Below, in pieces: positions 36,115-64,000 of a stretch of 64,000 nucleotides of DNA (position 1 is its first letter; the number at the start of each line of letters is the position of its first letter). The DNA comes from an uncultured Gammaproteobacteria bacterium (GTDB lineage: Bacteria > Pseudomonadota > Gammaproteobacteria > Ga0077536): NCBI GenBank assembly GCA_938082545.1, contig CALKCL010000019.1, forward strand, positions 3,914 through 67,913, in the 5' to 3' direction. The translations under genes and the position numbers were made by a program. The notes under the pieces are model-generated. The model was not told where the DNA came from. It did no database searches and worked only from the letters and a program-made list of their open reading frames with translations.

Positions 36115-37095
36115 TTACCTAATAACGTTGTCTCCAATGACGCCTATTGAGGTTGGAATACCGTTTTCCAGCCTCAAAGCCTTTTGGACAGCAAGATACC
36201 TCAGCTTGAACTTGTCACTGCCGAACTGCAGATCAAGTAAGCGCATGGTCTCTGCATATCTAGAAGCTAGATCACCAGGATTCTCTTTCAGGGAAGGATG
36301 AGCCTCTAGGTAAATGATCCCAGCATCTACGCCTACTTTTATAGGTTGATTAACTATTAAAACTTTCGTCCCGCTTTTTGTATTGGCAAATAGCTTTTTT
36401 ATGTGCTTTGGATACATTCGTATGCATCCATGAGTCACTCTCATTCCGATTCCATAGGGCTTATTAGTTCCGTGGATCAAATAGCCTTTTTCACTAAGAA
36501 GCATTGCGAATTTCCCTAAAGGATTTTTAGGTCCAGCCACAACGACTTTAGGTAAAGGGTCGCCGTTCGCCGCGTGTTCAGCTAATATCGAATCTGGCGG
36601 GTACCAAGCTGGATCTTCTAACTTCATAGTGACGGTCATAGCCCCATGAGGCGTGCCCCATTTTTGCCGCCCCACACTTACCGGATACGTGGACATCTCA
36701 AAAGAGTTCTCTCGTGTCGAAGTTCCAAACACGTACATACGCATCTCCGGAATATTTATGACTATTCCATCCGTCTTTACGCTCGGTAGAATATAAAGGC
36801 TAGGGATTATCACGTCGGTTCCTGCTTGAGGCAGCCACGGATCGATTGCTGGATTAGCAAGACGCATTTCTGTATACCCTTGATTATAAGAGCGAGCTAT
36901 ATCAGATAGCGTGTCGCCTTGTTCCACAAAAGCAAGCATCAGTTCGCCCACCAAATCACTTTTCGTATTAGCAGCTACATTGCTATGAAAAACTATTATG
37001 AGTAAAAGCAAAAAGGCAAAAAAGCTGCGGGCAAAGGATCTCAACAACGAAACTAGCGCTCTAGTAGTCGGGGCATAAGTTCCACAAGATTGCAT
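36115..37095 (-). CDS. LysM-containing L,D-transpeptidase (ErfK/YbiS family)
   Basis: GDTLSDIAR...ANPAIDPWLP (LysM), INIPEMRMY, YLIHGT, THGCIRM; real start probably about 48 nt downstream of 37095. Confidence 0.92.
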   Translation of the reverse strand: MQSCGTYAPTTRALVSLLRSFARSFFAFLLLLIIVFHSNVAANTKSDLVGELMLAFVEQGDTLSDIARSYNQGYTEMRLANPAIDPWLPQAGTDVIIPSLYILPSVKTDGIVINIPEMRMYVFGTSTRENSFEMSTYPVSVGRQKWGTPHGAMTVTMKLEDPAWYPPDSILAEHAANGDPLPKVVVAGPKNPLGKFAMLLSEKGYLIHGTNKPYGIGMRVTHGCIRMYPKHIKKLFANTKSGTKVLIVNQPIKVGVDAGIIYLEAHPSLKENPGDLASRYAETMRLLDLQFGSDKFKLRYLAVQKALRLENGIPTSIGVIGDNVIR

Positions 37096-37571
37096 GGTTT
37101 TGTTCGACTATCCAGCTGAAAGGATATTAAAGACTCCCATGCAAGTTTGCATGCGCCGGTTGACCCAGGCAAAGAAAAAACATAGGTCCTATTAGCAACG
37201 CCAGCCACTGCTCTAGACTGCATTGTCGAAGTTTTGATGTCCGCATATGAGAGAGCGCGAAAAGTCTCCCCGAAACCTTCTAAAGTTTTATCAAAAAGTA
37301 CTGAAACAGCCTCTGGTGTTCCATCTCTGCCAGTTACCCCAGTGCCTCCTGATATAAGAACAACATCTAACTTCGCAGTGTCTATCCATCCCGACACAAT
37401 AGCGCGAATAGAATATATGCTGTCTTTGCACATCGCTCTTTCAGCTAAATTGTGTCCTGCCTCAGCAATTTTTCTTACTAATAAGTCTCCAGACCTATCA
37501 TTTTTTAACGTACGTGTATCCGATACAGTCAGAACAGCTATCGACAAAGGAATAAATTCAGAATTCGGCAT
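37053..37571 (-). CDS. moaB: Molybdenum cofactor biosynthesis protein B
   Basis: IAVLTVSDTR, GGTGVTGRDGTPEA, QSRAVAG, LPGSTGAC, KPCN. Confidence 0.95.
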   Translation of the reverse strand: MPNSEFIPLSIAVLTVSDTRTLKNDRSGDLLVRKIAEAGHNLAERAMCKDSIYSIRAIVSGWIDTAKLDVVLISGGTGVTGRDGTPEAVSVLFDKTLEGFGETFRALSYADIKTSTMQSRAVAGVANRTYVFSLPGSTGACKLAWESLISFQLDSRTKPCNLVELMPRLLER

Positions 37572-37637
37572 CCTACTTCTCCGTAACTAAAACAAGTAAT
37601 CAGGTTAATATGCTCTCTTTGGACCTAAACATACAAC

Positions 37638-38042
37638 ATGCGCCCAATTGTGAACACTGAAACTGTAAAAATGCGGCTTGATATTTGGCTTTGGTCCGCA
37701 CGATTTTATAAAACACGTCAAATGGCGAACAGGGCCATACAATTGGGGCGAGTGCTTATCCAGGGCAGCAAAGTAAAGCCATCTAGAATGATAACTCTTG
37801 GCACTTGCCTTAATATCCGCCGAGAACAAATGGTCCAAACAGTAACGATTAAAGATTTGTCTGCAAGGCGAGTGTCCGCGCCATTAGCAGTCCAGCTCTA
37901 TATAGAAGACCCAAGCAGCATTGCACTCAACAATGATATCAAAGAAAAATTAAAACTGAGTGCTTTGTCTACACGCTATACCGAGAAGCCAAGTAAGCAG
38001 GACAGAAAACAGCGTATTAAAATAAAACGGCTTGGCGGCTAA
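37638..38042 (+). CDS. hslR: Ribosome-associated heat shock protein Hsp15 (S4 domain)
   Basis: RLDIWLWSARFYKTR, KPS, KPSKQDRK. Confidence 0.9.
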   Translation: MRPIVNTETVKMRLDIWLWSARFYKTRQMANRAIQLGRVLIQGSKVKPSRMITLGTCLNIRREQMVQTVTIKDLSARRVSAPLAVQLYIEDPSSIALNNDIKEKLKLSALSTRYTEKPSKQDRKQRIKIKRLGG

Positions 38043-38188
38043 GAAGATTGTGTGCCATACTTTTGACAGATATTTACAGGCTGAGAATCAGGCCCTTGAA
38101 CCACGTGGGGAGTAGATATACCTATACGCACTCAATAACGAGAATAGAGGTGTTTCTAATTGATAGCAGTAGCCAATAGAGTAAAGTC

Positions 38189-39067
38189 ATGTACCCAGCA
38201 CCTATAGAACAATATTCTAGACCCTCAACGCTAGAAGAGCTGTACAGCCTTCTAGACTCTAATGAAGAAGATATTTTAGTCCTTGCAGGAGGGCAAAGCG
38301 CGATGCAAGCAGTAAAATCTCGCATGCTTAGACCTGCTCATATCATCGATTTACAAGCACTCTCTGAATTAAAATTCGTTACGTCCGAAAAAGATCTTCT
38401 TACAGTTGGGGCGATGACCAGGTACGCTGATATTGTATCTTCCGATTCAATTCCACTAGAACTCATGGCATTGAAGGATGCGGCGAGTCGCGTTGGTGAC
38501 AGACAAGTTCGTAACAGAGGTACTATCGGGGGAAGCCTGTGCTGGAACTATAGCGCCGCTTGTACCCCAGCTACTGTCTTAGCTTTAGATGGGGCTATGA
38601 ACCTCATATCCCCAGATGGCTCGACTAGACAAGTCGCTGCAGATGATTTCTTTCTAGGGCCATTGGAGACCGCTCGAAACGAATTTGAGATATTACTGTC
38701 TGTTGATTTCAAGTTGAGAGGCTCTAAGTCTGGAAGTGCATATAAAAAATGGGGGTTAGTAACCGATGCGCTGCCAGTCATAGGGATAGCGGCATGCTTG
38801 CACTTCGATAATGCGGACTGTTGCGACTACGCACGAATAACTTTAACGGGTCTATCCGGCGCTCAACGTTGCCTGGAAGCAGAAGCGTCGCTCCTAAGCA
38901 CCAGCGCGAATGCAGAAGAAATTGCAGAGGCCATGATGATTGTGTGTAGTAAAGTATCGACGTATACAGACTCCATGGCGACTGCAGATTATCGCTATCA
39001 GCTTATAAAAACAATCGGCTTAGAAGTGATAGAAATAGCAAAAAAAAGAGCTTTCAGCTTAGGATAA
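38189..39067 (+). CDS. Xanthine-oxidase-family hydroxylase, FAD (medium) subunit
   Basis: LAGGQS, GDRQVRNRGTIGGSL, AYKK. Confidence 0.93.
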   Translation: MYPAPIEQYSRPSTLEELYSLLDSNEEDILVLAGGQSAMQAVKSRMLRPAHIIDLQALSELKFVTSEKDLLTVGAMTRYADIVSSDSIPLELMALKDAASRVGDRQVRNRGTIGGSLCWNYSAACTPATVLALDGAMNLISPDGSTRQVAADDFFLGPLETARNEFEILLSVDFKLRGSKSGSAYKKWGLVTDALPVIGIAACLHFDNADCCDYARITLTGLSGAQRCLEAEASLLSTSANAEEIAEAMMIVCSKVSTYTDSMATADYRYQLIKTIGLEVIEIAKKRAFSLG

Positions 39068-39083
39068 ATGGAGGACTGGCATA

Positions 39084-39563
39084 TTGGCTAAAGTTGCAAT
39101 TGATATCAACGGAAGACTGTTTCAAGAAGAAGTACCAGAAAGAATGCTATTAGTAGATTTCATTAGAGAACGTGCTCATCTCACAGGCACCCATATTGGA
39201 TGCACCTACGAAGGAGTATGTGGCGCATGTACAGTACATTTAGATGGAGAGGCTGTTAAAAGCTGTATGCTACTCGCCGCACAAGCAGATGAACACAAGA
39301 TTACAACAGTGGAAGGCTTGGCACCGGATGGAGAACTCACGCCATTGCAAGAAGCCTTCAAATCTGAACATGGTTTGCAATGTGGATTTTGCACAGCGGG
39401 TATCTTGATGAACATGACTGATTTCTTGAAAAGATATCCCAACCCAAGTGAGCAAGAAATCAGGGAAGGTCTGATTGGCAATTTATGCCGATGCACTGGC
39501 TATGTGCATATCATCAATGCTGTCCGCAAAGTTGTGCAAGAAAACCAATCAAGAAAAACCTAG
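39084..39563 (+). CDS. Xanthine-oxidase-family hydroxylase, 2x[2Fe-2S] (small) subunit
   Basis: GCTYEGVCGACTV, KSC, QCGFCT, NLCRCTGY. Confidence 0.95.
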   Translation: MAKVAIDINGRLFQEEVPERMLLVDFIRERAHLTGTHIGCTYEGVCGACTVHLDGEAVKSCMLLAAQADEHKITTVEGLAPDGELTPLQEAFKSEHGLQCGFCTAGILMNMTDFLKRYPNPSEQEIREGLIGNLCRCTGYVHIINAVRKVVQENQSRKT

Positions 39564-39575
39564 GAGACATAAGAC

Positions 39576-41969
39576 ATGTCCCAGAGAAAAAATGACGACT
39601 GGATGGGAACCCCGCTGCCCCGAAAAGAAGATCGCAGGTTGCTCACCGGGAAAGGAAAATATGTCAGCGACATCGTCATTCCCGGCGCACTTCATGCCGT
39701 TTTTGTCCGTAGCGAATATGCACATGCAAAAATATTATCTATCGATACATCTGAAGCCGAAGAATTGGCAGGTATTGAACGGATATATACAGGGGACCAG
39801 ATCAAACACCTAATAAAATCTATGCCACAACCGATTGTTCAACCCGCTCTTCCTGCTCACTACCCCACTTTTTGGCCATTAGCTGTTGATAAAGTCACAT
39901 TCCACGGAGAGCCAGTAGCACTTGTTGTAGCACGTGATAAATATGTTGCAGAAGATGCTGCTGAATTAGTGTTCGTTGATTACGAAGAACTAAAGCCGGT
40001 TTTAGACCCGGAAGAAGCCCTCAAACCTGAATCGGCGATTATCCATGAAAAAGATGGCACGAATGAAATATTTTCGATGACCTTCACCGGTGGAGATACA
40101 GAAGCAAGTCAAGCCGAAAATGCTGCTGAAGTAGAAAAAATATTCCAAAACGCACCTATCGTGGTCAAAGACAGATTTAAAACCCATCGCACTGGAGTCA
40201 CGCCAATGGAGCCCAGGGCGATCTTGTGTGATTGGGATGATTCCGATGGCTTACTCGCATACATTACGACACAACGGCCCCATATCGATAGATTAGCATT
40301 ATCCGACATACTCGATATCTCTGCAGAAAAAGTCCAAGTCATCGCGCCTCGTGATCAAGGAGGTGGCTTCGGAGTCAAGGCACCCTTCTACAGAGAAAAT
40401 ATAATTATTGCTCACGCGGCACGCGACTTAAAACAGCCAGTGAGATGGGTTGAATCTCGATATGAAAGCTTGATGAATGTAGGGCAAGAAAGAGATCAAA
40501 TTAACGACATGGAAATTGCTGCGGATCTAGAAGGCAATATGCTGGCACTGCGTAATTTTGGTCTCGCAGATAATGGCGTTGGAACGACAGGTGTATACTG
40601 GGGATTCGTCATGCCTTTCTTAGGCGCCATAGAGTTACCAAACGGATACAAATGGCCAAAGGCTGATATCCGTCTCAAAGTCGCAACTACCAATAAGGCT
40701 TGTTTAACACCCTCAAGAGCCTTTGGGCATTTCCCGACCCGTTTCGCAATTGAACGTTGTATCGATATGGTCGCCCACAAGATTGGGATGGAGCCCAGCA
40801 CGTTTCGCAGAAAGAATTTAGTAGCTGACCTACCTTACACCAGCATAACAAATGAATACTTTGACAGTGGCGATTTCCTAAAAGTCTGGGATACACTAAT
40901 GGAAAAAGCCAATCTTCCTGACTTCAGAGTCCAACAGAAAAATGCATTATCAGAAAAAAAATACATTGGAATAGGATTCGGGTGTGGAGTGGAACTGTCA
41001 GGGGTCGCTTCAGAACTATTTGTCCCAATGGAAAATCAACCCGGATACGGGGCTGCGACTGTGCGGCTCGATCCCAGAGGAAAAGTCCAAGTCTTTGGTG
41101 GCGATGCGCCTGGAGGGCAAGGTCATGAAACAACGACCGCACAAGTGGTCGCTTCCGAATTCGGTATTTCTCCCGAAGATGTCATCATAACAACGGGGAA
41201 TACAGGTAGTACTCCTTTTGGCTCTGGTTCGGTTGGAGCCCGCATGGGGTCCTATTTCATCAGCGCGGTGGCTGAGGCCTGTAGAGAATTAAAAACCAAA
41301 ATTGCTAAGTTCTTAGCACATGACTTACAACTAGAAGCATCAGTTGAACATTTTGAGTTCAAAAATGGAGAGGTTGTCTATTTAGGCGACGATTCCCAGC
41401 GTAGCTCTTTCATGTCTATTGTTGAACGTATCATCATGTTTCCGATCAACATGCCAGAGGGGGAAACCGGTGGATTGGACGCAACGACTTTTTTCGAGGC
41501 CGCCAAGCCTATGATTTGCTTTAACGCTGATTGTTGCGTGGTTGAAGTGTCGTTGGAAACCGGTGACTTCAAAATATTAAAGTGGATAACAGCCGAAGAT
41601 GTAGGAAACGTAATAAATCCATTAATTGTTAACGGACAAATGCACGGAGCTATTGTTCAGGGCATATCTAACACTGTGTTCGAAGAATTTGTTTACGACG
41701 AACAAGGCCAACAATTGACTGCTGATTTTGAACATTACAAAATGGCTAATGCCGCAGATGTCCCCAACATTGATCTCAACTATGCCACCACGCCTTGTCC
41801 TCATACGCCTTTAGGGACTAGAGGTATTGGGGAAGGAAGACCTAGCTCTGTGCCAGGCGCGCTTACAAATGCGGTTTGTGATGCTCTAAAACCCTTTGGA
41901 ATAGAGATCACCACTTTGCCACTTAGGCCAGATGCTATCTGGCAAAAAATACAAGATGCTACTCAGTAA
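39576..41969 (+). CDS. Xanthine-oxidase-family hydroxylase, molybdopterin (large) subunit; substrate unknown
   Basis: RKEDRRLLTGKG, TQRPH, GGGFGVK, GQGHETT, GSGSVGAR, RGIGEG (catalytic Glu); active-site loop reads PSRAFGH. Confidence 0.92.
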   Translation: MSQRKNDDWMGTPLPRKEDRRLLTGKGKYVSDIVIPGALHAVFVRSEYAHAKILSIDTSEAEELAGIERIYTGDQIKHLIKSMPQPIVQPALPAHYPTFWPLAVDKVTFHGEPVALVVARDKYVAEDAAELVFVDYEELKPVLDPEEALKPESAIIHEKDGTNEIFSMTFTGGDTEASQAENAAEVEKIFQNAPIVVKDRFKTHRTGVTPMEPRAILCDWDDSDGLLAYITTQRPHIDRLALSDILDISAEKVQVIAPRDQGGGFGVKAPFYRENIIIAHAARDLKQPVRWVESRYESLMNVGQERDQINDMEIAADLEGNMLALRNFGLADNGVGTTGVYWGFVMPFLGAIELPNGYKWPKADIRLKVATTNKACLTPSRAFGHFPTRFAIERCIDMVAHKIGMEPSTFRRKNLVADLPYTSITNEYFDSGDFLKVWDTLMEKANLPDFRVQQKNALSEKKYIGIGFGCGVELSGVASELFVPMENQPGYGAATVRLDPRGKVQVFGGDAPGGQGHETTTAQVVASEFGISPEDVIITTGNTGSTPFGSGSVGARMGSYFISAVAEACRELKTKIAKFLAHDLQLEASVEHFEFKNGEVVYLGDDSQRSSFMSIVERIIMFPINMPEGETGGLDATTFFEAAKPMICFNADCCVVEVSLETGDFKILKWITAEDVGNVINPLIVNGQMHGAIVQGISNTVFEEFVYDEQGQQLTADFEHYKMANAADVPNIDLNYATTPCPHTPLGTRGIGEGRPSSVPGALTNAVCDALKPFGIEITTLPLRPDAIWQKIQDATQ

Positions 41970-41989
41970 TTGGGTGTTAGGAGTAACCG

Positions 41990-42556
41990 TTGGAATTAAA
42001 TGATGAAGTGCTTATTAAAGCTGAAAGAGAAAAGGTTTTCCTAGCGTTAAATGATCCAGATATTTTACAAAAAGCGATACCTGGATGCGAGCTGATTGAA
42101 AAGCTATCTGCGGATAAGTACAAGGCTATTATTGTATCAAAAATCGGTCCCTTGAAAATTCGTTTCAAAGGAGAAGCGACGATCTCAGAATCAAAGTTCC
42201 CTTCAAACTATAAAATTACTGGAGAAGGAAGAGGTGGTCCGGCCGGACACGCTAAAGTGGTCGCAAATGTAGTGCTGCGTGAAGAAGAGTCATCCACTCG
42301 CCTAGCATACACTGTGCACGCCGACATTGGTGGGAAGCTTGCTCAACTGGGAGGCCCTTTGGTGGAAAAGACAGCGCAAAAGCTATCGGCTAATTTTTTT
42401 GAGCATTTAAATAAGCTTTTGTCAGCAAACACCTCAATAAAAACAGAGGATGAAACTATCTCTTCGCCGGATAAAGCCCCGTCATACTGGGCCAAAGCTG
42501 CCGCCATTTCAGCTATTGTGGCAATAGGTATTCTGGCCTGGGCAATGCTTAAATAA
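41990..42556 (+). CDS. coxG: CoxG/SRPBCC family protein with C-terminal membrane anchor
   Basis: LNDPDILQKAIPGCE, IGPLK, IGGKLAQLG, hydrophobic C-tail. Confidence 0.88.
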   Translation: MELNDEVLIKAEREKVFLALNDPDILQKAIPGCELIEKLSADKYKAIIVSKIGPLKIRFKGEATISESKFPSNYKITGEGRGGPAGHAKVVANVVLREEESSTRLAYTVHADIGGKLAQLGGPLVEKTAQKLSANFFEHLNKLLSANTSIKTEDETISSPDKAPSYWAKAAAISAIVAIGILAWAMLK

Positions 42557-42626: not shown

Positions 42627-43640
42627 ATGAGTAGAGCGGCAGAAAGATACCCTGAGAAACTCGTCGACAAGTTCGGGCGAACAGTAGATTACGTGCGGAT
42701 ATCTGTGACTGACAGATGTGACTTCCGTTGCGTTTATTGTATGGATGAGGAGATGGAGTTTCTCCCTCGAGACCGCATCCTGACTCTAGAGGAACTAGAG
42801 TTAGTCGGGAAAGCATTTGCAGAGTTGGGAGTAACAAAAATTCGGCTTACTGGTGGGGAACCATTAGTACGAAAAGACGTCATCACGCTAATCGAAAATT
42901 TAGGAACAATACAAAGTCTAAAAGAGTTAGTAATAACCACAAACGGTTCACAATTAGTCAAATTAGCGTTGCCTTTAAAAAATGCTGGCGTGAAAAGAAT
43001 CAATATCAGTTTAGATTCCCTAAATCCAAAAAAATTCAAAGAACTCACAAGAACCGGTGAACTCCAGCAAGTCCTTGATGGAATCAAAGCCGCTAAAGCA
43101 GCTAATTTCGAAAAAATAAAAATCAATGCTGTTATTTTAAAAAATAGAAACGATGATGAAGTTAAAGCATTAGTTGATTTCTCCGCAGACAATGACCTTG
43201 ATATATCCTTCATTGAAGAAATGCCTTTGGGTGTTATAGGAGAACATGATAGGGCCGAGGCATATTACTCTAGCGATAATATTAAAGCGGATTTGGAAAA
43301 GCATTACACATTGATCCCCACCCCAGAAACTACTGCGGGTCCGTCCAAGTATTTCCGCGTCGCAGAAACTGGCGCTCGTGTTGGTTTTATTTCTCCCCAC
43401 AGCCATAACTTCTGTGACGACTGTAATAGAGTCCGTCTAACGGCAGAAGGAAGATTGCTCTTATGTCTGGGGCAGGAACATTCGGTTGACCTCAGGGCTG
43501 TACTGAGAACCTACCCTGGCGATATCAATAAGCTGAAATCCGCAATCGTTGACTCTATGGATATAAAACCCAAAGGACATGACTTCGACCTAAGTGTGCA
43601 ACCATTAATATTCCGTCATATGAGTCACACTGGCGGCTAA
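42627..43640 (+). CDS. moaA: GTP 3',8-cyclase
   Basis: RISVTDRCDFRCVYC, LTGGEP, FCDDCNRVRLT...LC, C-terminal GG. Confidence 0.97.
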   Translation: MSRAAERYPEKLVDKFGRTVDYVRISVTDRCDFRCVYCMDEEMEFLPRDRILTLEELELVGKAFAELGVTKIRLTGGEPLVRKDVITLIENLGTIQSLKELVITTNGSQLVKLALPLKNAGVKRINISLDSLNPKKFKELTRTGELQQVLDGIKAAKAANFEKIKINAVILKNRNDDEVKALVDFSADNDLDISFIEEMPLGVIGEHDRAEAYYSSDNIKADLEKHYTLIPTPETTAGPSKYFRVAETGARVGFISPHSHNFCDDCNRVRLTAEGRLLLCLGQEHSVDLRAVLRTYPGDINKLKSAIVDSMDIKPKGHDFDLSVQPLIFRHMSHTGG

Positions 43641-43716: not shown

Positions 43717-44409
43717 TTGTTCGACTCTAACTCAGCTCTAATCTCTGCTTTTTCGATGCTCCTAACAGGAGATAGAGAAGTTTGGTCAGCTATCGGTGTT
43801 TCATTTTCGGTTTCTCTACGTGCAATTCTCATTGCGTCACCTCCTGCTATTGCAATGGCTTTTCTTCTCGCATATAAAACTTTTCCTGGCAGAAGATTAG
43901 TTCTAACTATAACCAACACTTTAATGTCAGTTCCTGCAGTCGTTGTTGGCCTCACTGTTTATCTTGCTTTGTCTAAAAATGGCATAGCAGCCGACCTCAG
44001 ATTACTCTATACCCAGCCAGCTATGATTATCGGCCAAGTTATTATTTGTTTCCCGCTGCTAGTTGCTATGGCTCACGCCACTTTTGTGGCAGGAGACAAA
44101 CTTGCGTATGAAACTGCTCGTACCCTAGGTGCTAAACGCATCCCAGCGATGCTCACCGTCTTTCTCGAGTTGCGCTTTGGTTTGCTGGCCGCAGTAATTG
44201 CCGGATTCAGCCGGATAATCGCAGAAATTGGCTGCTCTATGATGGTCGGTGGCAATATTTTAGATCACACAAGAAATATCCCGACAGCAATAGCCTTAGA
44301 AACCAGCAAAGGAGAGTTTGCTATGGGAGTGGCATTGGGGATCGTTTTGCTGTCACTCACTATGCTACTGAACGTACTGCTAGCGATGTTTCAAGGTGAT
44401 GGGCAATGA
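43717..44409 (+). CDS. tupB: Tungstate-type ABC transporter permease
   Basis: NTLMSVPAVVVGLTVY, LLYTQPAMIIGQ, AEIGCSMMVGGNI...TRNIPTAIALETSKG. Confidence 0.85.
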   Translation: MFDSNSALISAFSMLLTGDREVWSAIGVSFSVSLRAILIASPPAIAMAFLLAYKTFPGRRLVLTITNTLMSVPAVVVGLTVYLALSKNGIAADLRLLYTQPAMIIGQVIICFPLLVAMAHATFVAGDKLAYETARTLGAKRIPAMLTVFLELRFGLLAAVIAGFSRIIAEIGCSMMVGGNILDHTRNIPTAIALETSKGEFAMGVALGIVLLSLTMLLNVLLAMFQGDGQ

Positions 44410-47288: not shown

Positions 47289-47293
47289 TGAGA

Positions 47294-54705: not shown

Positions 54706-55840
54706 TATCTCCGGAAAACCGCTTTGGTTGCTGGCTGAACTTACTTATAAATGTCCTCTCCAGTGCCCCTATTGCTCCAATCCGCTGGAGATCAGTAAAT
54801 ATAGTAATGAATTAACAACCGGCGATTGGTTTCGTGTCTTACGGGAAGCACGAGCTTTAGGAGCTATGCAGCTGGGTTTGTCAGGTGGGGAGCCGCTGGT
54901 CAGGAAAGATCTTGAAGAAATAATTGCAGAAGCACACAGGTTAGGTTATTACAGTAATCTCATTACTTCTGGCGTGGGGATGGATGCTGACCGAGTAGCC
55001 AAGTTCAAAACCTCAGGACTAGACCATATTCAGATAAGCTTCCAGGCAAGTGACAAGGAATTAAACGACTTTCTAGGAGGAACAAGTAGTTTTGCGCATA
55101 AGTTAGAGATGGCGCGGGCTGTTAAAGACCAAGGCTACCCTATGGTTTTAAACATTGTGCTCCATCAAAAAAATATCGAACAATTAGAAGATATCATTAA
55201 GATGTGTGTTGAGTTAAAAGCGGATTTTGTCGAGCTTGCCAGCACACAGTACTACGGCTGGTCCAGATTGAATATCGATTATCTTCTTCCGACTAGAGAG
55301 CAAGTGACTAAAGCCGAAAGCATTGCAAAACGTTATCAAACTGAGTTAGAAGGAAAAATGAAAATTCTTTACGTAGTGCCGGACTATTATGAAAAGCGTC
55401 CTAAAGCCTGCATGAATGGATGGGGCTCTATATTTCTGACAATAGCACCCGATGGACGAGCATTACCTTGCCACGCTGCTGCAACGTTACCTGATATAGA
55501 GTTTCCAAATGTCAGAGATAACTCCATAGAGTCGATTTGGGACGATTCTAATGCCTTCAATAAATTTAGAGGGTTCGAATGGATGGAGGAACCTTGTCGC
55601 TCGTGCCCAGAAAAAGAAAAAGATTTTGGAGGTTGTCGCTGTCAAGCCTACATGATGACAGGGAATGCTGCGGCAGCCGATCCTGTGTGTGATAAATCAC
55701 CTCACCACGCGGATCTTCAAGCAGAGGTGGCATTAATAGAAAAGACTTCTGCCAACAAAAACGAGCCTTTGATTTTTCGAACCATGAAGAATTCAAAAAA
55801 ATACCAGACAGATAAAAAGCTTAATTTATCGCAAAACTAG
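54686..55840 (+). CDS. pqqE: PqqA peptide cyclase (radical SAM/SPASM)
   Basis: [32 protein letters not shown]...[13 protein letters not shown]. Confidence 0.97.
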
Positions 55841-56663
55841 TACAAACGGCTTGAAGATTCGCAGGCACATTGTGTACGCGAAAGATTTGAACGCCAGCCC
55901 TCACTCCTAAAACGGTGGTCGCACATGTTGCGCTATCAAGGTTATCAGGGTTCGGGACATCGCAGAGAACACTTAAGAAGTTTTTCCTACTGGCTCCTAG
56001 TACCACTGTAAAACCAGTTTCAACAAACGTACGTAACATGCTTAAAATCATTACATTGTGTTCCAGAGTTTTCCCAAATCCTATCCCAGGATCAATTGCA
56101 ATTTTCTCTCGAGGGACGCCGTAAGAAATCGCTTGTTTTGTTTTCTCGAGCAAAGCCAACTTTATTTCATCCACAGGAGCTGCATAAGTCGGGTTTGACT
56201 GCATCGTGTTCGGTTCCCCTTTCATATGCATCAAGATGATTGAGGCGCCAGTTTTCGCAACGAGTGGGAACATAGCAGGATCGTTTCCGGCCGAGACATC
56301 ATTTACAATACAAGCACCCGCTTCAATCGCTTTTTCGGCAACTTCAGCGCTGCGGGTATCGACACTAATAAATTTATCTCGAGGCATTTGCTTGCTAATT
56401 TCTGAAAGTGGGCCAATTACTCTCTCCATCTGTTCAGCACTAGTCACGCTGATCGCTCCTGGGCGCGTCGATTCGCCACCAACATCTAATATAGCAGCGC
56501 CACTTCGAAGCATGCATAACCCTTCAGTTATTGCATTTTCCGGCCTAAGGAAACGACCTCCATCCGAAAAACTATCTGGAGTGATATTTAATATACCCAT
56601 GAGCAGCGGCTGCTTAATTCCAACAAAAGGATAGCTGTCTCTAAACTTACCCATTAGCACCAC
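55821..56663 (-). CDS. folP: Dihydropteroate synthase
   Basis: [46 protein letters not shown]; 3' end overlaps pqqE by 20 nt. Confidence 0.93.
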
Positions 56664-57641
56664 TTACCTAGAAGATAGCTCGGCGGCCATTTCATCAGAG
56701 GCCTCGATGAGCCCATAAATCATATCTTTTTCACTTGATAGGTGTCCCGCACTTCTCAAAAAATTGATAGAAGAATTTGGGATTGATTTATGAAGCAACC
56801 AAGCTGACTCCGGCAAACACGTCAGATCTCTAGATCCATGTACGATCTTACAAGACACCTTTGGAAGCTTATCAATGTCTTCGATCAATTGATTTTCCTT
56901 CATGAAATACCCATGCTTCGCATAATGGAATTCAATTTTTGCCTTGACGATAGCCGATTTCATATTAATATTATGCGATTCTCCAAAACCTATTCCATCT
57001 ATTGAGAACATGACCACTGAACCCGACCAAATTTCCCAAGCTCTGGCCGCCGCTTCCATTCGTTCTTGGTCCCCAGACATAATAGCATCGTAGAGAAAGT
57101 CAGAAATATTAGAAATGTCTTCCATATTAAGAGACGATATAAATCTATCCCATTGAGCAGGTAAGAATCGATTAGCTCCGTTTCCAAAAAACCAATCTAC
57201 ATCTTTTCTTCTGGCTAAAAAAGAACCACGAAAAATCATGCCAGAAACACTAGCAGGGAAAGCCTCGGCATAAGCAAGTGCCAATGTGACCCCCCATGAG
57301 CCTGCAAACAAAACGAACTTGTTTACGCTATAAAGTTTTCTTATCAATTCTAAATCTTTAATTAAATGATTCGTAGTGTTGGCAACTACGGAACCGTAAG
57401 GTATAGATCTACCTGAACCACGCTGATCAAGTAAAAATATATGATATTTTTTTGGATTGAAAAATTGACGATGGTCGCTATTACACCCTCCTCCTGGTCC
57501 CCCATGAAGAAAAACGACAGGGATACCTTTTTTATTCCCGCACCTTTCAACATATATTTGATGTCCGTCACCAACAGGTACTAGCTCCTCGGCGTAAGGC
57601 TCAATCTTAGGGTATAAGCCCTTCTTTTTTTCTGAACTCAT
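56664..57641 (-). CDS. pip: Prolyl aminopeptidase (alpha/beta hydrolase S33)
   Basis: LYPKIEPY, HGGPGGG, DQRGSGRS, AGSWG, VHGSRD, AGH. Confidence 0.92.
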   Translation of the reverse strand: MSSEKKKGLYPKIEPYAEELVPVGDGHQIYVERCGNKKGIPVVFLHGGPGGGCNSDHRQFFNPKKYHIFLLDQRGSGRSIPYGSVVANTTNHLIKDLELIRKLYSVNKFVLFAGSWGVTLALAYAEAFPASVSGMIFRGSFLARRKDVDWFFGNGANRFLPAQWDRFISSLNMEDISNISDFLYDAIMSGDQERMEAAARAWEIWSGSVVMFSIDGIGFGESHNINMKSAIVKAKIEFHYAKHGYFMKENQLIEDIDKLPKVSCKIVHGSRDLTCLPESAWLLHKSIPNSSINFLRSAGHLSSEKDMIYGLIEASDEMAAELSSR

Positions 57642-57668: not shown

Positions 57669-57983
57669 CTATCCTCCTCCTTTTTGAAAGCCTTGATGAA
57701 AAGTCTGCATATAGGATTTGATACAGGCTCGATTCATATTCTCAAACGTTAATTGTATGTCGATGATTGGAAATTTAAGGAACCCCAATGCTCGAGTTTT
57801 TTCCTTAGATAAACAGATGTCGACCTTCTCTCCAGTTTTCCAGCTACTATGAGCACCATTAGACTTTAGAGATATATGAGCATCGGGAAATAGCTTTGGA
57901 TAAACTCGAAAGAAATCTGAGTAGCTAAGTCCCATATCACAACAAGAAATGACCGTGGTTTTATTTAATTGTTCACTGTTCAC
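57669..57983 (-). CDS. Conserved-looking hypothetical protein ending in FQKGGG
   Basis: 104-aa ORF at the head of the pip-folP run; MGLSYSDFFR...FPIIDIQLTF...FHQGFQKGGG. Confidence 0.7.
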   Translation of the reverse strand: MNSEQLNKTTVISCCDMGLSYSDFFRVYPKLFPDAHISLKSNGAHSSWKTGEKVDICLSKEKTRALGFLKFPIIDIQLTFENMNRACIKSYMQTFHQGFQKGGG

Positions 57984-58188: not shown

Positions 58189-58401
58189 CTATTCTTTTAC
58201 AGTACAGACCTCTGAGCGAATCAAGAATCTTTTACCGGTACCATTGTCTAGTGAAAACATACCGCCCATTCCATCTACGAGATCAACAACTAAGTTTGTA
58301 TGCTCCCACCGACTGTACTGATTATGATGCATATAAAAAGGTACATTACATAATGGGGTATCTTCTACAAATCCACCTAGGCTAATTTTCTTGTTATTCG
58401 A
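58189..58401 (-). pseudogene. 5'-truncated DUF779-family gene relic
   Basis: Manual translation: ...KISLGGFVEDTPLCNVPFYMHHNQYSRWEHTNLVVDLVDGMGGMFSLDNGTGKRFLIRSEVCTVKE*. This resembles the DUF779 C-half as recalled (PFY...W.HT.L.IDVV.G.GG.FSL..G.G.RFL.RS). In-frame TGA at 58404-58402; no GGCCDG N-half upstream. Confidence 0.7.
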
Positions 58402-58758: not shown

Positions 58759-59022
58759 TTACCCCCCCGCGACGGGAGGCCACACTGCTAAAACATCCTT
58801 ATCACTTAGAAAGCTGGTTTTTCTTTTTTCGGGCGGTATGAAAAAACCATTTACTAGCACTAAATGGGCTGACTCCAGTGGAACACTCTGCTGCTCTAGC
58901 ACGCCGACTATTGAACAGTCGCGAGGAATAATGATATCAATTTTATTTTCTACAGCTTCTTTCGGAAGATATTGCGCCAGTGATGCGTATAGTTTAAATG
59001 TAATTGTTATCTTCAAAGGCAT
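58759..59022 (-). CDS. MoaD/ThiS-like sulfur carrier of the AOR operon (AorD-like)
   Basis: KLYASL, LVLVNG, DVLAVWPPVAGG; last gene of the aor run. Confidence 0.88.
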   Translation of the reverse strand: MPLKITITFKLYASLAQYLPKEAVENKIDIIIPRDCSIVGVLEQQSVPLESAHLVLVNGFFIPPEKRKTSFLSDKDVLAVWPPVAGG

Positions 59023-59084: not shown

Positions 59085-60353
59085 CTATTTCATCACATCT
59101 GCATTAAAGCCTATAGCTTGAGTTGCACCTAAATATGCTTCCATGATTCGAGTCGGATCTTTCATGAGCCTCTCTTTCCAAACCCCAAGCTTTATCTTAC
59201 TTTGAATAAGGCCGCGCAGCACCCCAACATGTTGGGTCAAACCCAGACTAGTAGCGCCTACCAAAATGTCATCTTGAAACTGCAGATTTATATATTTAAA
59301 TCGTTCTTTATTTAGCAGCTCGGCTGAATCTCCTCCCGTCACCCCCATCCACAAGCCGAAGGAACTCGAAATGAGTCCTAAGGTATCGAGCACATTCATG
59401 TTTACCGATCCTCGATGGGTGGCTTGAGTTTGTCCTGCCATATTTTTTGCAGCAAGCGCTCCGTGCTCTACCGCAGTCGGCTGGATCGCTTGAACAGACA
59501 TCTCTCCAGTAGAAAAATCATAGGCTTGTGCAACATCCCCTGCGGCAAAAATGTTCTCATCACTCGTTCTCATCGCTTTATCTACTAAAACGCCCTCTTC
59601 GATCTTCACGTCGGTCGTGTCAAGCGCGCTCGTATTGGGTTTCACGCCTGTGGCAGAAACCACCATATCAGCAATTAACTTATGACCCGTGCTCAATTCC
59701 ACTAACAAAGAACCGTCATCTTGAGATATAGAATTAACTTTCGTAGAAGTGTGGACATTGACACCGTTATGTTGGCACCAATCCTTTATCATAGTGCCAG
59801 CAATATCGTTCATCATTCTGGGCACCATCCGGTCTTCCATTTCAACTACCGTCAAGTCAGCGCCACTTTTTGCGAGCGCTTCAAGAATAATACACCCGAT
59901 GAATCCAGCACCCATCAGCACCACTTTCGATCCTGGTTTCGCAACCCTCGCGATGTGTCTAGCATCTTCCAAGGTCCAACAACTTGTCACACCAGGTAGA
60001 TCAATGCCTGGTATCGGAGGTGCTAAAGGAGTTGAGCCAGTCGCAATAAGCAACTTGTCGTAATTGATTTTTGTCCCACCCTGTAGACCTACGGTTTTCT
60101 CCGTTTGATCAACTGACACAACCTTGCCTTGGACGATGGCGATTCCGCTTCTTTTATAATGCTCATCGTCTTTACGCAGAAAAGTACCACGTTCATCGAT
60201 TTGATTAATAAGTAAGTACGGAATGGCCATTCTCGAGTAAGGCATTTCAGGCTCATCACCTACCAAAGTTATGATCCCGTCACGGTCTATTTTACGAAGG
60301 TTCTCAGCGGCAGTGACTCCAGCAGGTCCCGCTCCAATGATTACATATTGCAC
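59085..60353 (-). CDS. aorC: FAD/NAD oxidoreductase subunit (AorC-like)
   Basis: GAGPAG, PYSRMAIPY, ATGS, GAGFIG, FAAGDVA, NVLDTLGLISSSFG. Confidence 0.85.
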   Translation of the reverse strand: MQYVIIGAGPAGVTAAENLRKIDRDGIITLVGDEPEMPYSRMAIPYLLINQIDERGTFLRKDDEHYKRSGIAIVQGKVVSVDQTEKTVGLQGGTKINYDKLLIATGSTPLAPPIPGIDLPGVTSCWTLEDARHIARVAKPGSKVVLMGAGFIGCIILEALAKSGADLTVVEMEDRMVPRMMNDIAGTMIKDWCQHNGVNVHTSTKVNSISQDDGSLLVELSTGHKLIADMVVSATGVKPNTSALDTTDVKIEEGVLVDKAMRTSDENIFAAGDVAQAYDFSTGEMSVQAIQPTAVEHGALAAKNMAGQTQATHRGSVNMNVLDTLGLISSSFGLWMGVTGGDSAELLNKERFKYINLQFQDDILVGATSLGLTQHVGVLRGLIQSKIKLGVWKERLMKDPTRIMEAYLGATQAIGFNADVMK

Positions 60354-60389: not shown

Positions 60390-62240
60390 TTAGAGGCCTA
60401 ATCGGCCCATGGTTTCATTAGTTGGCACACCTTCCTCAGACCAACCTCGCAGCGCATAATACTGAGGCAGCATCTCGTGCAATCGATTCACGGAACCTTT
60501 GGCCGGTCCGGTCTTTGCAGCGTCTTTAAGAAGCCTCGCTGGAAGAGTATCGTCTGCTTTTGTCAGACCAGCATCAAGATTAAACTGTCTTTCCAAGTTC
60601 CAGATTCTTTCGCCAGCTTCCAGCATTGAAGCTGCGCTCCATCCACCCTCGCAAGCAGCATCAACCTGGGGCGCAATATCTTCCAAAGTCCAGGCAAACG
60701 TGGTGAACGAGCATAGACCCGTGCTGTCAACCGCTGCCGCCGCGTCTTGAAAAGCCTTTACAAGTTCCGGCTTCCCATCAGTCGTGAGTGGATCGGTTTT
60801 CACAGGGACGCCCATGATCTCAGATGACACTGTATAGCCTCTTAAGTGACATGCTCCTCTATTTGACGTGGCATAACCGAGTCCCATTCCCTGTATCGCC
60901 CTTGGGTCATAAGCTGGAAACTCTTGCCCTTTTACAGTCATTGAAATCTCAGGGTGGCCGTACTTCTCACACAACCGCTTAGAACCCATAGCCAAGTCTT
61001 TGCCGAACCCTTCGCCAGTAGCCACGAGCTCTGCCGCTTTCGTAAGCGCCTCAGCCGACCCAAAAGACAGGTCGAGACCTTCCGTCGTTTCCAGAGTAAT
61101 AGCTCCCATTTCAAATAGTTCCATGGCGGCTGAGACGGTAGCCCCAAAGGAAATAGGATCGTATCCATCTTCATTACATAGAAAATTAGCGTAAGTTAGA
61201 GCATCTAGATCATCAACCCCTACATTCGAACCTAATGCCCAAGCCGATTCATACTCGAGCCCACCAGACGCTCCAATGTATTCTGGTTTGTTCTCAATAC
61301 TATAGTGTTGTGGATCAATTGTAGAAATCCGACCACAGGCAATAGTGCAACCAAAACACGCTGCGTTAGTAACCAAGTTAGGCTTCCCATCACTTTCTCG
61401 CGGTTCAGCCATAGCTTCGCCAGAAATTTTATGAGCCCCTTCAAATTGAACTTCCTTCATGTTTCTCGTGGGCATAGCCCCTACCTCATTGATGACATTC
61501 ATCAACACTTGGGTACCCATCGCCGGCAAACCTTCTCCTGTTACCGCATTGTCAGCGAGTGTCTTTTTTCCTTCGCTAGTAGCTTTAAAAAATGCCTTAG
61601 GATCTCTTATGTTCCCTACTCCGACTGTTCCTCTTATAACTACTGCTTTCAGGTGCTTCGAGGCCATAACTGTGCCCACACCTGAACGTCCGGCAGCTCT
61701 GTGGCGGTCGTTAACTATTGAGGCATACAGACAACCGCTTTCGGCTGCCCTCCCTACGCAAGCGATCTTAACCAAAGGATCTTGGAATTTCTCGTGAAGC
61801 AATTCATCAGTTGCCCATACTGATTTTCCCCATAAATCATCGGCGGGCATCAGTTGTGCTTTTTCGTTTTCTAAATAAAGGAAAACTGGAGTTTTGGATT
61901 TTCCTTCAAAGATAATCATGTCCCACCCAGCTTGCTTCATTTCTGCCCCGATAAAGCCTCCAGAATTCGAGCACGCGATCGCTCCGGTCAAAGGGCTTTT
62001 GGTAATAACAGAATAGCGTCCGCCTGTTGAAGCCATAGTCCCGGTCAAAGGACCGGTAGCCATGATTAACTTATTCTCGGGAGACAATGCATCCTCTTTA
62101 GGGTCGATTTCTTCCGCAAGGTATTTAGTAGCCAATCCCCTTTGCCCCAAAAAAAGACGAGCCCATTCCATATTCAGAGGCTCTGGCTCACAAGTACCTT
62201 TTGTTAAGTTGACTCTCAGAATTTTTCGTTGCCAAGACAT
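60390..62240 (-). CDS. aorB: Tungsten-dependent aldehyde:ferredoxin oxidoreductase catalytic subunit
   Basis: ATGPLTG, TKSPLTG, RAAGRSGVG, CFGCTIAC, EYE, DGYDPIS, YDPR, NRGACH, GLC; start moved to MSWQRK at 62240 (616 aa). Confidence 0.93.
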   Translation of the reverse strand: MSWQRKILRVNLTKGTCEPEPLNMEWARLFLGQRGLATKYLAEEIDPKEDALSPENKLIMATGPLTGTMASTGGRYSVITKSPLTGAIACSNSGGFIGAEMKQAGWDMIIFEGKSKTPVFLYLENEKAQLMPADDLWGKSVWATDELLHEKFQDPLVKIACVGRAAESGCLYASIVNDRHRAAGRSGVGTVMASKHLKAVVIRGTVGVGNIRDPKAFFKATSEGKKTLADNAVTGEGLPAMGTQVLMNVINEVGAMPTRNMKEVQFEGAHKISGEAMAEPRESDGKPNLVTNAACFGCTIACGRISTIDPQHYSIENKPEYIGASGGLEYESAWALGSNVGVDDLDALTYANFLCNEDGYDPISFGATVSAAMELFEMGAITLETTEGLDLSFGSAEALTKAAELVATGEGFGKDLAMGSKRLCEKYGHPEISMTVKGQEFPAYDPRAIQGMGLGYATSNRGACHLRGYTVSSEIMGVPVKTDPLTTDGKPELVKAFQDAAAAVDSTGLCSFTTFAWTLEDIAPQVDAACEGGWSAASMLEAGERIWNLERQFNLDAGLTKADDTLPARLLKDAAKTGPAKGSVNRLHEMLPQYYALRGWSEEGVPTNETMGRLGL

Positions 62241-62265: not shown

Positions 62266-62733
62266 TTAGTTTTGCGGTATAGATTGAGCAGCGTGAGAGC
62301 GCATTCTCTCAAGTCCCGTATGTTCTGAATCTACGTAAGTTATAGCTTGAGTCGGACAAGCGGTGACACATGCCGGGTCTCCCCCGCACAAGTCGCATTT
62401 CATTACTTTACCGCTATCAGCGTTATAATTTACGGTCCCAAAAGGACAAGCTATAGTACAAACCTTACAACCCACACAAACGTCTTCGATTACTTCCTTG
62501 GCACCCGTCGCCTCATTCACAACTATGGCCTCAACAGGACAAGCATGAAGGCACCAAGCTTCAGAGCACTGGGTACACGTATAAGGAGCGAACCTACCTT
62601 CATCATGAAAATTAAAAACTTTGATACGAGATTTAGAAGGGTTGAAAACGCCTTCATTCTCATAAGAACAAGCCATTTCGCACTGTAAACACCCAGTACA
62701 TTTCTCAGGCTCTAGTTGGAGCGCTTTTAGCAT
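62266..62733 (-). CDS. aorA: 4x[4Fe-4S] electron-transfer subunit (AorA-like)
   Basis: CTGCLQCEMACS, CTQCSEAWCLHACP, CVGCKVCTIACP, KCDLCGGDPACVTACP. Confidence 0.9.
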   Translation of the reverse strand: MLKALQLEPEKCTGCLQCEMACSYENEGVFNPSKSRIKVFNFHDEGRFAPYTCTQCSEAWCLHACPVEAIVVNEATGAKEVIEDVCVGCKVCTIACPFGTVNYNADSGKVMKCDLCGGDPACVTACPTQAITYVDSEHTGLERMRSHAAQSIPQN

Positions 62734-62916
62734 GTCTAGTCTTCCCCCATTAAATACGCTGCGTCATAGTTCATATTCTTATGCAATCTACACAGCATCG
62801 TTCACTAAGAATTATCAACAGGGTCCATCAGTTTTATATAATATACGTCTGCCGATATTGGACCGAGATTAACTGGAATTTGCATGAAATGCTACAGGCA
62901 AACAATTGATCGAAAA

Positions 62917-62974
62917 TAGGAATAATTCTCATAAAGAAATGATTTCTATTTAGATATATAAATGATTCCCATTA
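62917..62974. promoter_or_regulatory. Cluster of Fur-type 7-1-7-like sites in the aor / PQQ-accessory divergent promoter
   Basis: TAGGAAT-A-ATTCTCA (62917-62931), AGAAAT-G-ATTTCT (62935-62947), AAATGATTCCCATT (about 62960-62973). Confidence 0.45.
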
Positions 62975-63051
62975 GTTTAAAGAGCATGTAATTTAAGTCC
63001 AGCAGGCCTACAATAAAGCGGTAACCATCATAGACCGGTCAGCACGAAAAA

Positions 63052-63858
63052 ATGAAAAATAAAAAAGACATACGGGGTCGTTATTTTAACTGTTTTAAAA
63101 TCTCATCATTCCTAATGCTCTGCTTCTTGAGCGCTCTCGCCTCTTCCAAAGACTTACCCTTATATTTCTATGGAGACATGTCTTCCAACGAGTGGCACGG
63201 AGCTATCCAGGGTTTGCTAGAAGCGAATGTTCAAGGTAAATTTCTACGGCTAAACTATAAACTCATGCATAAAACGGACCTGGACGACGTAAAGGCTGAC
63301 AAACCCTATGCTGTCATATCATCCCTGTCGCCAGTAGAACTCAGACAAGCACTTTTAGCAAATCCCCAGATACCCTTTCTAAATGTAGGCTCAATTTCAG
63401 AACACTTTTCAAGTTTATGCGCCCCTAACCTCTTTCATATCAGACCCCATCCCTCCGCCTTGGACGCCGCCGAAGCCGCCTGGAAAACCAAAGACGGGAG
63501 CGGGATCAAAGCGGTCTTATGGCATCGTAGTTTTAAAAAATATGCTGCCGCACAGCTAAACAAACGGTATGAAAAAAATACCGACCGCTATATGACCTCA
63601 GAATCGTGGGCTGGCTGGGCTTCGGTTAAACTTTTCTCCGACACCTTAGCTCGAAATGGTCTCGAATCCGAAATAAGCGCAGTACATTTTTTGAAAAATA
63701 GGCTGGCTTTTGATGGACAGAAAGGCAAAGATCTGTTTTTTGATGATTTAAACTATTTAGCGCAACCTTTATTGCTGATCTCCGGTGACAAAATCGTCGG
63801 AGAAACAAACACAAGTCAGATACTGTCTGCTGAAAGCGGATCATCCTCTTGTAAATGA
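63052..63858 (+). CDS. Periplasmic binding-type protein of PQQ alcohol dehydrogenase systems
   Basis: GAIQGLLEANVQGKFL, VLWHRSF..YAAAQLNKRY, WAGWASVK, FDGQKG...F....LAQPLL. Confidence 0.7.
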   Translation: MKNKKDIRGRYFNCFKISSFLMLCFLSALASSKDLPLYFYGDMSSNEWHGAIQGLLEANVQGKFLRLNYKLMHKTDLDDVKADKPYAVISSLSPVELRQALLANPQIPFLNVGSISEHFSSLCAPNLFHIRPHPSALDAAEAAWKTKDGSGIKAVLWHRSFKKYAAAQLNKRYEKNTDRYMTSESWAGWASVKLFSDTLARNGLESEISAVHFLKNRLAFDGQKGKDLFFDDLNYLAQPLLLISGDKIVGETNTSQILSAESGSSSCK

Positions 63859-63919
63859 GCGGAAAGCTCACAAGTCATTTAAGATACCTACACACTCGTC
63901 ACAACATAGAGGAAAAAAT

Positions 63920-64000
63920 ATGAAGTTGATACTCGCTATAACTGCCGTAATTTTTGCGACAAACGCCATGGCAGCCACGAATCGGGCGTTCGTATCCAAT
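63920..64000 (+). CDS. Secreted YVTN-type beta-propeller protein (5' end only)
   Basis: AGAGG RBS, then MKLILAITAVIFATNAMAATNRAFVSN; the signal peptide plus AFVSN start and the neighbouring gene fit the PQQ-catabolism beta-propeller. Confidence 0.55.
   Translation, partial: MKLILAITAVIFATNAMAATNRAFVSN

Follow-up and report, generated by a model that had tools for sequence, protein, structure and literature searches.

A conserved supercluster of redox-cofactor and tungsten aldehyde oxidoreductase genes in an uncultured marine gammaproteobacterium, and its plausible coupling to PQQ-dependent alcohol oxidation

The window discussed here is a 64,000-nucleotide stretch of DNA from an uncultured marine gammaproteobacterium (contig C19, CALKCL010000019.1, positions 3914-67913, assembly GCA_938082545.1; the genome comprises 2.03 Mb in 40 contigs and is 88.5% complete). 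From position 37053 to its end, the window carries the operon of a tungsten aldehyde oxidoreductase (AOR), AorABC, together with genes for the synthesis of molybdopterin and of pyrroloquinoline quinone (PQQ), a tupBC-like transporter, and a pair of genes of the Ped type known from PQQ-dependent alcohol dehydrogenases (ADHs). The arrangement is a conserved supercluster for redox cofactors and aldehyde oxidation, and a coupling between PQQ-ADHs and the tungsten enzyme is plausible. A conserved neighborhood of 25-30 kb holds the cofactor and aor genes, and the ADHs are encoded elsewhere. The interpretation that we favor, with some reserve, is that the PQQ-ADHs are coupled to AorABC and that exaC, the gene of an NAD-linked aldehyde dehydrogenase (ALDH), is dispensable.

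Genes were mapped by Pfam and NCBIfam scans of all long open reading frames (ORFs) and by reading of the short ones. From 37053 onward the window has 31 genes, counting remnants, of which about 24 have a part in the synthesis, uptake or use of redox cofactors; thus, an earlier note on this DNA, which had said so of nearly every gene from moaB onward, described the stretch correctly. No cofactor link was seen for hslR, DUF1302, DUF1329, the prolyl aminopeptidase, the FkbM methyltransferase and a small protein, u104. All of the molybdenum cofactor (Moco) and pqq genes found by tblastn are single-copy and lie on C19. Given this, and a gene order conserved in 10 of 10 further genera, the clustering is far beyond chance.

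The AorABC operon

The operon is read from the minus strand in the order aorA (62266..62733), aorB (60390..62240), aorC (59085..60353) and aorD (58759..59022). These encode, respectively, a poly-[4Fe-4S] subunit, the tungsten-pterin catalytic subunit, an FAD/NAD subunit and a MoaD/ThiS-like protein of 87 residues with a GG end (PF02597, 26.5 vs 22.5). AorA, AorB and AorC match chains C, A and E of PDB entry 8C0Z with E-values of 3e-75, 3.7e-296 and 1.2e-131. Residues 25-640 of the long aorB ORF, which includes AFOR_N and AFOR_C domains, align end to end with residues 1-615 of 8C0Z chain A; the start is most likely Met25 (62240), giving a protein of 616 residues that matches 8C0Z. Judged from the sequences, AorABC is a true ortholog of the Aromatoleum aromaticum enzyme in 8C0Z, as the earlier identification of a tungsten AOR operon had implied, and its tungsten content and NAD+-dependent activity are predicted.

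Operons of this type were described by Arndt et al. (PMC6365974), and the enzymes belong to Class III WOR, clade 87 (PMC13328260). The Aromatoleum AorABC is NAD+-linked, accepts a broad range of aldehydes and forms filaments (PMC6365974; bioRxiv 10.1101/2023.01.23.525143). The AorABC(DE) system of A. aromaticum EbN1 agrees in its three subunits and their gene order, again with a MoaD-like gene next. However, EbN1 is a denitrifying degrader of aromatic compounds, whereas the operon here belongs to a marine gammaproteobacterium with a small genome and many PQQ-ADHs; pqq, moa and ped genes surround it; and in place of AorE, the second MoaD-like protein of EbN1, the second accessory protein here ends in GGG and lacks the MoaD fold.

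That second accessory protein is u104 (57669..57983, minus strand; 104 residues). A scan of one genome per species yielded 80 aorB loci with 72-98% identity; aorD follows aorC in nearly all of them, and u104 homologs come right after aorD in at least 35, including lineages with no ped genes. Members of the family have about 100 residues, with R64, F95 and GGG invariant and the C-terminal pattern F-x-[KR]-G-G-G. There was no match to u104 in Pfam or NCBIfam; a profile search of the PDB gave E-values of 0.3 or more, and the best Foldseek E-value was 0.028. The AlphaFold2 model (pLDDT 89.6) has a sheet and two helices and is not a beta-grasp. With these sequence and profile nulls and the fold of the model, the candidate identity of u104 as a second MoaD-like AorE was rejected; no second MoaD-like gene is present at the locus, and u104 takes its position.

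Sequence words from aorB occur in more than 20 marine metatranscriptomes, and some of the assembled contigs match the window at about 99.5% identity. In four metatranscriptomes, aorABC has the highest assembled-contig depth between 44.5 and 64 kb (10-50, vs 0-7 for most neighbors), 3-10 times that of the neighboring genes, although such depth is a poor measure and a weak proxy for expression. Two metatranscriptome contigs end at 62813, which is 80 nt upstream of aorA. Scans for regulatory signals were negative: there was no sigma-54 consensus match in the gap between aorA and pedA1, sigma-70 and terminator scans gave no more than chance, and no 10-mer was common to the divergent intergenic regions of 10 genera.

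Conservation of the gene order

Among the 80 aorB loci, 28 keep PedA1/PedA2-like genes beside aorA, about 20 have folP and the aminopeptidase-type gene pip adjoining aor, and 14 have pqqE. On a tree of AorB, the aor-ped linkage is present in 29 of the 68 rows with scorable flanks (the 28 fetched loci plus the window). The distribution requires at least three changes, parsimoniously eight, and none of 500 label shuffles needed as few. It is present throughout a well-supported clade of 20, and several other branches show it as well; in one subclade the Ped pair is inverted and still adjacent to aor.

The taxonomic order to which the window belongs consists of one family, with 81 species in 18 genera. 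AorB is matched in 68 of the 81 genomes; in most of the 68 there is an ortholog with at least 79% identity, and in a few the top match reaches only 56-71% or is partial. Most of the larger genomes of the family also encode a second AorB paralog with about 61% identity on another contig; the genus of the window has one ortholog only.

For a closer comparison, 35-kb stretches from 10 further genera of the family were used. The string aorDCBA-pedA1-pedA2 is present in all 10, and most share the entire order: (coxMSLG) moaA (tupBC) mobA moeA pqqB moaE moaC PCD pqqA pqqCDE folP pip ... u104 ... aor, where PCD is a pterin-4a-carbinolamine dehydratase homolog (present in 9 of the 10). The whole gene order can also be found in closed chromosomes from at least one other taxonomic order (L040/L092, L042/L093). 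The neighboring proteins have diverged to 40-75% identity, and so the gene order is old and under selection. The co-localization of aor, pqq and tup genes that had been proposed from this single stretch is thus real; it extends to the ped-type and moa genes, throughout the family and beyond.

The surroundings of the ped genes differ among relatives. After pedA2, larger relatives have genes for a TonB-dependent receptor and for two regulators, a histidine kinase of the MoxY type and one of the LuxR type, which recalls ped and mxa systems. In a distant Thiolinea sp. metagenome-assembled genome (L056:3484-21165), aorABCD sits inside a full ped cluster, in the order ALDH, ackA, pta, pip-like hydrolase, aorABCD, NosR-like, MoxJ-like, PedF cytochrome c550, full-length PedA1, PedA2 and PedB. 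The recurrence of a pip-like alpha/beta hydrolase beside aor in distant lineages suggests that it may not be a housekeeping peptidase. Two loci from larger-genome members of the family (G067 and G046) have a TPR-sulfotransferase gene between u104 and aorD, and porin-like and SHOCT-domain genes between pip and u104; these extra genes, like the regulators and the receptor, are absent from the streamlined genus of the window.

Gain and loss of exaC

Between aorD and u104 there is a relic of a DUF779 gene (58189..58401, minus strand). Its PF05610 match (58207-58353, minus strand, 58.9 bits) spans positions 46-94 of the 94 in the profile, and the genome has no other match to DUF779; the N-terminal half is missing, and stop codons lie upstream. 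Another candidate for the relic, a plus-strand ORF of 109 residues at 58718-59047, was rejected as the shadow of aorD.

In a sister genome with 95-97% nucleotide identity (SI072_bin20, locus L010), the interval between aorD and u104 holds intact exaC and DUF779 genes. The exaC product, an acetaldehyde dehydrogenase of ExaC type, has 525 residues (NF050026, 889 bits vs a cut-off of 900) and the DUF779 product has 145. The window is missing exactly L010 13964-15927, a segment of 1,964 bp that comprises exaC and the 5' 60% of the DUF779 gene, with a 5-bp overlap at the junction (58351-58355). Three alleles can be found in seawater metagenome assemblies: the deletion of the window, in a 10.6-kb contig with 0 differences; a larger deletion that skips from 58207 to 58527; and contigs that read on into the N-terminal half of DUF779, like L010.

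In other species of this genus and of the family, aorD adjoins u104 and there is no ALDH, so that exaC-DUF779 is a recent insertion and not an ancestral gene displaced by AOR. The pair entered behind aorD in the recent ancestor of this species; the present genome has lost it by deletion, and natural populations are polymorphic for it. This combination of deletion and natural polymorphism suggests that exaC is dispensable next to AOR. The proposal that the DUF779 partner of an NAD-ALDH survives as a relic was therefore correct in that a stump of an exaC-DUF779 pair is present, and the pair is intact in the sister genome, but incorrect in treating exaC as an older partner that AOR had replaced. 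The notion of AOR serving in place of an NAD-ALDH fared better: the sole other full ALDH in the genome is a succinate-semialdehyde dehydrogenase (TIGR01780, 694 bits vs 646), and no general NAD-ALDH was found. After the loss of exaC, AorABC appears to be the only general aldehyde oxidizer in the genome.

PQQ genes, the Ped-type pair and alcohol dehydrogenases

Of the five genes pqqABCDE, all present in the genome, four are in the window. The gene pqqB is the last in the minus-strand string moaD-moaE-pqqB (50066..51705), and its product scores 391 bits with TIGR02108 against a cut-off of 245; pqqC-pqqD-pqqE occupy 53586..55840 on the plus strand (Pfam). In the first string, moaD (51472-51705, minus strand; 77 residues with a GG end, added by short-ORF reading) overlaps moaE by 4 nt, and a gap of 25 nt separates moaE from pqqB. 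With all three genes co-directional and so closely spaced, pqqB may be co-transcribed with the molybdopterin synthase genes. The moeA / pqqB-moaE order is also present in G037, G046, G061, G067, L091, L092 and L094, including loci outside the taxonomic order.

No pqqA was found upstream of pqqC or pqqB in the window; in most other genera, it is directly upstream of pqqC. Here it is on contig C3, near the end of C19. Contig C19 stops 1,086 bp beyond the window end, and when both contigs are aligned to the sister locus L010, the ends of C3 and C19 overlap by about 140 bp (C3:43523-50888, C19:62264-68999), which identifies the two as neighbors. Contig C4, which has a quinohemoprotein ADH near its end, had been considered as the continuation and was rejected in favor of C3. 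The joined sequence continues after pedA2 with DUF1244, pqqA (peptide MAWEAPTYQDIRLGFEVTMYINNR, about C3:50371, minus strand), cytochrome b561, four genes of which one is weakly LdtF/YafK-like and three are unnamed, tilS, accA and dnaE.

The Ped-type genes, both for exported proteins, start divergently from aorA across a gap of exactly 318 bp (62734-63051), as had been noted. The first encodes a short, PedA1-like periplasmic binding protein of about 270 residues (63052..63858, plus strand). Its TIGR03863 match covers the C-terminal part only and scores 65 bits against 413.6; the homologs form a family of 255-300 residues with Peripla_BP_6, and the gene adjoins aorA in at least 25 loci. The second is the 5' end of a gene for a PedA2-type seven-bladed beta-propeller (63785..64000, plus strand, continuing to C19:68777), with a TIGR03866 score of 315 bits vs a cut-off of 287. 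The genome has no match to TIGR03861 (PedC). The description of this pair as PQQ-ADH accessory genes fits PedA2, which exceeds the curated cut-off, but is weakened by the trimmed PedA1 and by the absence of PedC from the genome.

The natural reference is the ped/exa clusters of Pseudomonas putida and P. aeruginosa, with PedE/PedH or ExaA, PedF/ExaB, PedI/ExaC, PedA1A2BC and PedS2R2; in P. aeruginosa, the pqq operon adjoins exaC (PMC6839425, PMC12997753). The supercluster resembles them in its PedA2-type propeller, its PedA1-like protein and the adjacent pqq genes, in the exaC and DUF779 genes of the sister genome, and in the MoxY/PedS2-type kinase and LuxR-type regulator of larger relatives. 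Unlike them, it is without an ADH, cytochrome c550, PedB or PedC, and its PedA1 is trimmed. The aldehyde step here is predicted to be carried out by a tungsten enzyme, and ExaC/PedI, deleted from the locus, is optional and being lost.

At least four, and perhaps five, PQQ-ADHs are encoded in the genome, on the other contigs C21, C4 and C11. On C21, two tandem ADH genes of the XoxF/ExaF type, both with the lanthanide-type WDYD motif, flank a MoxJ-like gene; the ADH on C4 is a quinohemoprotein, and another is on C11. Twelve relatives with the same aor neighborhood have 3-18 ADH genes per genome. The earlier note had called the stretch an alcohol-to-acid superlocus and suggested reading on past its end for a PQQ-ADH and a cytochrome, holding beforehand that the lack of such a dehydrogenase nearby would count against the idea. 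Neither a PQQ-ADH nor cytochrome c550 is there. With no PQQ-ADH nearby and the ADHs on other contigs, the locus is not a complete alcohol-to-acid unit.

Interpretation

In the scheme that we favor, periplasmic PQQ-ADHs, two of them of lanthanide type, would oxidize alcohols to aldehydes. The aldehydes would enter the cytoplasm, where AorABC would oxidize them to acids and reduce NAD+, acting as the main general aldehyde oxidizer of the organism. The Ped pair may serve in lanthanide handling or in PQQ-ADH maturation. Much of what had been read from the window by itself carries over to this scheme, including the conserved co-localization, the true AOR and the exaC stump; what does not is a nearby ADH and ExaC as the ancestral partner.

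A number of observations weigh against the scheme. There is no PQQ-ADH or cytochrome c550 in the window or in the joined contig C3; in closed chromosomes of relatives the nearest ADH is 160-450 kb from the cluster, and an ADH is adjacent in only one of about 28 linked loci (L023, beside pedA2). Three of the 10 genera keep aor and ped in the block but have no pqq genes there. With PedA1 trimmed and PedC absent, any role of the Ped pair is putative, and the contig depths given above are weak evidence of expression. The sole Moco gene set has other clients in the genome as well, namely two further enzymes of the AOR family and two of the CoxL type, and a housekeeping-looking folP and a peptidase-like gene sit in the middle of the cluster. 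The genome is only 88.5% complete and may encode a further ALDH. Finally, the Aromatoleum AOR is inactivated on exposure to air (half-life about 1 h; PMC13328260).

The main rival to coupling is that the supercluster is a redox-cofactor island kept together by descent, with aor as the main client of the tungsten- and molybdenum-pterin genes and no hand-over of aldehydes. We consider this rather unlikely, though it accounts for several observations directly: the cluster contains no ADH, its moa, mob and moe genes are the only set in the genome, the only dihydropteroate synthase (DHPS) found, folP, is inside the block, and pqq is missing from it in 3 of 10 genera. Most linked loci, moreover, form one well-supported AorB clade, which fits vertical inheritance. 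However, descent would not lead one to expect that exaC-DUF779, which represents the aldehyde step of exa/ped systems, should be inserted exactly into the aor operon, or that Ped-type regulators and a TonB receptor should lie beside pedA2 in relatives. The Thiolinea locus, in which aor is within a full ped cluster with PedF, is independent, and the linkage is found outside the family and survives inversion.

A less probable alternative makes AorABC a general aldehyde detoxifier or a reversible valve between acids and aldehydes, in either case without a link to alcohol catabolism, with the Ped pair recruited to a periplasmic task specific to AOR, such as the capture or sensing of metal, and not to the handling of lanthanides or PQQ-ADHs. 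The Ped pair does stay with aor where the pqq genes have left, PedA1 is shortened, PedB and PedC are absent, and the cluster has tupBC without tupA in most genera; the Aromatoleum enzyme is broad-range and able to reduce acids (PMC9295118). On the other hand, genus g18 has both tupA and the Ped pair, and the present genome has a TupA-like gene elsewhere, so the Ped pair is no replacement for TupA. The score of PedA2 above the curated TIGR03866 cut-off also argues against such a recruitment, and the lanthanide signature in the ADHs of the genome fits a role in lanthanide handling instead. That the juxtaposition or the deletion is an artefact of metagenome assembly (a chimeric contig) is highly improbable: the genome is indeed a 40-contig bin of 88.5% completeness, but the same order is present in closed chromosomes and 10 genera, a 10.6-kb contig assembled independently from run X1, which may be the source sample, has 0 differences across the junction, and the GC content is even over the window (41-48%).

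The combination had been presented as not known to be a described unit. We found no description in the literature of an interleaved moa/pqq/aor/ped supercluster or of an exaC polymorphism. The metabolic route as such is not new, however: for short-chain alkanes in uncultured Cycloclasticus, pHMO, PQQ-ADH and tungsten AOR have been proposed in sequence (PMC12510462, citing Rubin-Blum et al. 2017). The idea is the same, a periplasmic PQQ-ADH followed by a tungsten AOR in marine Gammaproteobacteria, but that work is a metabolic reconstruction that describes no conserved cofactor supercluster, Ped pair or loss of ExaC (PMC12510462).

The cluster has consequences beyond this genome. The common view still assigns tungsten enzymes chiefly to anaerobes and thermophiles. 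In the present case, a bona fide AorABC ortholog occurs almost universally across an uncultured family (in 68 of its 81 species) and has been kept by a streamlined marine genus with a genome of 2 Mb. If the coupling is true, the marine oxidation of alcohols and aldehydes (ethanol and acetaldehyde are abundant volatiles) would need three trace metals at once, and the availability of tungsten would matter for carbon cycling. The natural presence/absence polymorphism of exaC provides a ready-made test, and the interleaved moa/pqq order is a new example of joint organization of two unrelated cofactor pathways.

Tentatively, the scheme might be extended to a three-metal relay in a widespread marine and sediment family, with lanthanide PQQ-ADHs in the periplasm, the tungsten enzyme AorABC in the cytoplasm and molybdenum hydroxylases giving access from the side. 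Interleaved, possibly co-transcribed genes for PQQ and tungsten-pterin would hard-wire the relay, an NAD-ALDH would be dispensable, and tungsten, picomolar in seawater, could be a micronutrient that controls how volatile organic carbon is oxidized in the ocean; this extension is possible but doubtful.

Other genes of the cluster

The gene set for the molybdenum or tungsten cofactor is complete, with moaA, moaB, moaC, moaD, moaE, mobA and moeA each in a single copy in the genome. It begins with moaB, for a moaB/mog-type molybdopterin-binding protein (37053..37571, minus strand; PF00994, 96 bits). Further along the plus strand are moaA (42627..43640; Radical_SAM and Mob_synth_C domains), mobA (45056..45682; PF12804), moeA (48790..50052; MoeA_N, MoCF and MoeA_C domains) and moaC (51787..52278; PF01967). 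The PCD homolog lies between moaC and pqqC (53056..53445, minus strand; PF01329).

A tupB-like permease and an ABC ATPase are encoded at 43717..45071 on the plus strand (NF038017, 192 vs 100). The permease has TupB as its best named match, with a score of 160 against an equivalog cut-off of 320. In Thiolinea and other lineages, complete tupABC operons lie next to aorABC, and the permease is 59-65% identical to their TupB. Compared with a TupABC tungstate transporter, the genes are in two places: the cluster holds tupBC with no binding-protein gene, and a TupA-like protein with the TTTS motif is encoded on contig C9 (C9:8536-9345; best named match TupA, 222 vs a cut-off of 400). All three Tup proteins are below the NCBIfam equivalog cut-offs; they look orthologous to the products of tupABC near aor in other lineages. 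In most genera the cluster likewise has tupBC without tupA, genus g18 being one that has tupA plus the Ped pair.

The gene hslR is placed between moaB and a coxM-coxS-coxL-coxG string (38189..42556, plus strand; Pfam) that encodes a molybdenum hydroxylase with FAD, 2Fe-2S and Moco subunits and CoxG. The CoxL-type large subunit is below all NCBIfam cut-offs (glyceraldehyde dehydrogenase alpha, 495 vs 790; CO dehydrogenase, 457-472 vs 950-991 bits), and an identity as aerobic CO dehydrogenase (CoxMSL) was rejected on the latter scores. The closest solved structures to the large subunit are a CoxL and quinoline oxidoreductase. The coxMSLG genes are syntenic in G003, G061 and G067.

Two insertions set this genus apart. 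One is a DUF1302/DUF1329 outer-membrane pair (45687..48577, minus strand; Pfam), which none of the 10 other genera has in the cluster and which is thus genus-specific; it has moderate contig depth in metatranscriptomes. The FkbM-family methyltransferase gene (52248..53042, plus strand; Pfam) is likewise an insertion found only in this genus.

The genes folP and pip, the latter for a prolyl-aminopeptidase-type alpha/beta hydrolase, occupy 55821..57641 on the minus strand (TIGR01496, 284 vs 163; TIGR01249, 283 vs 260). The view of folP (55821-56663, minus strand) as a specialized paralog was not upheld, as its product is the sole DHPS found in the genome; an essential folate gene is thus placed inside the aor-side gene string, co-directional with aor and downstream of it.

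Two further AOR-family paralogs, 25-31% identical to AorB and one with a ferredoxin-like subunit, are present in this 2-Mb genome, as are two further CoxL-type molybdenum hydroxylase sets. Together these are located at C21:17230-18951, C15:23533-26181, C15:43021-46765 and C21:58349-61987, and several of them share a contig with the lanthanide-type ADH pair.

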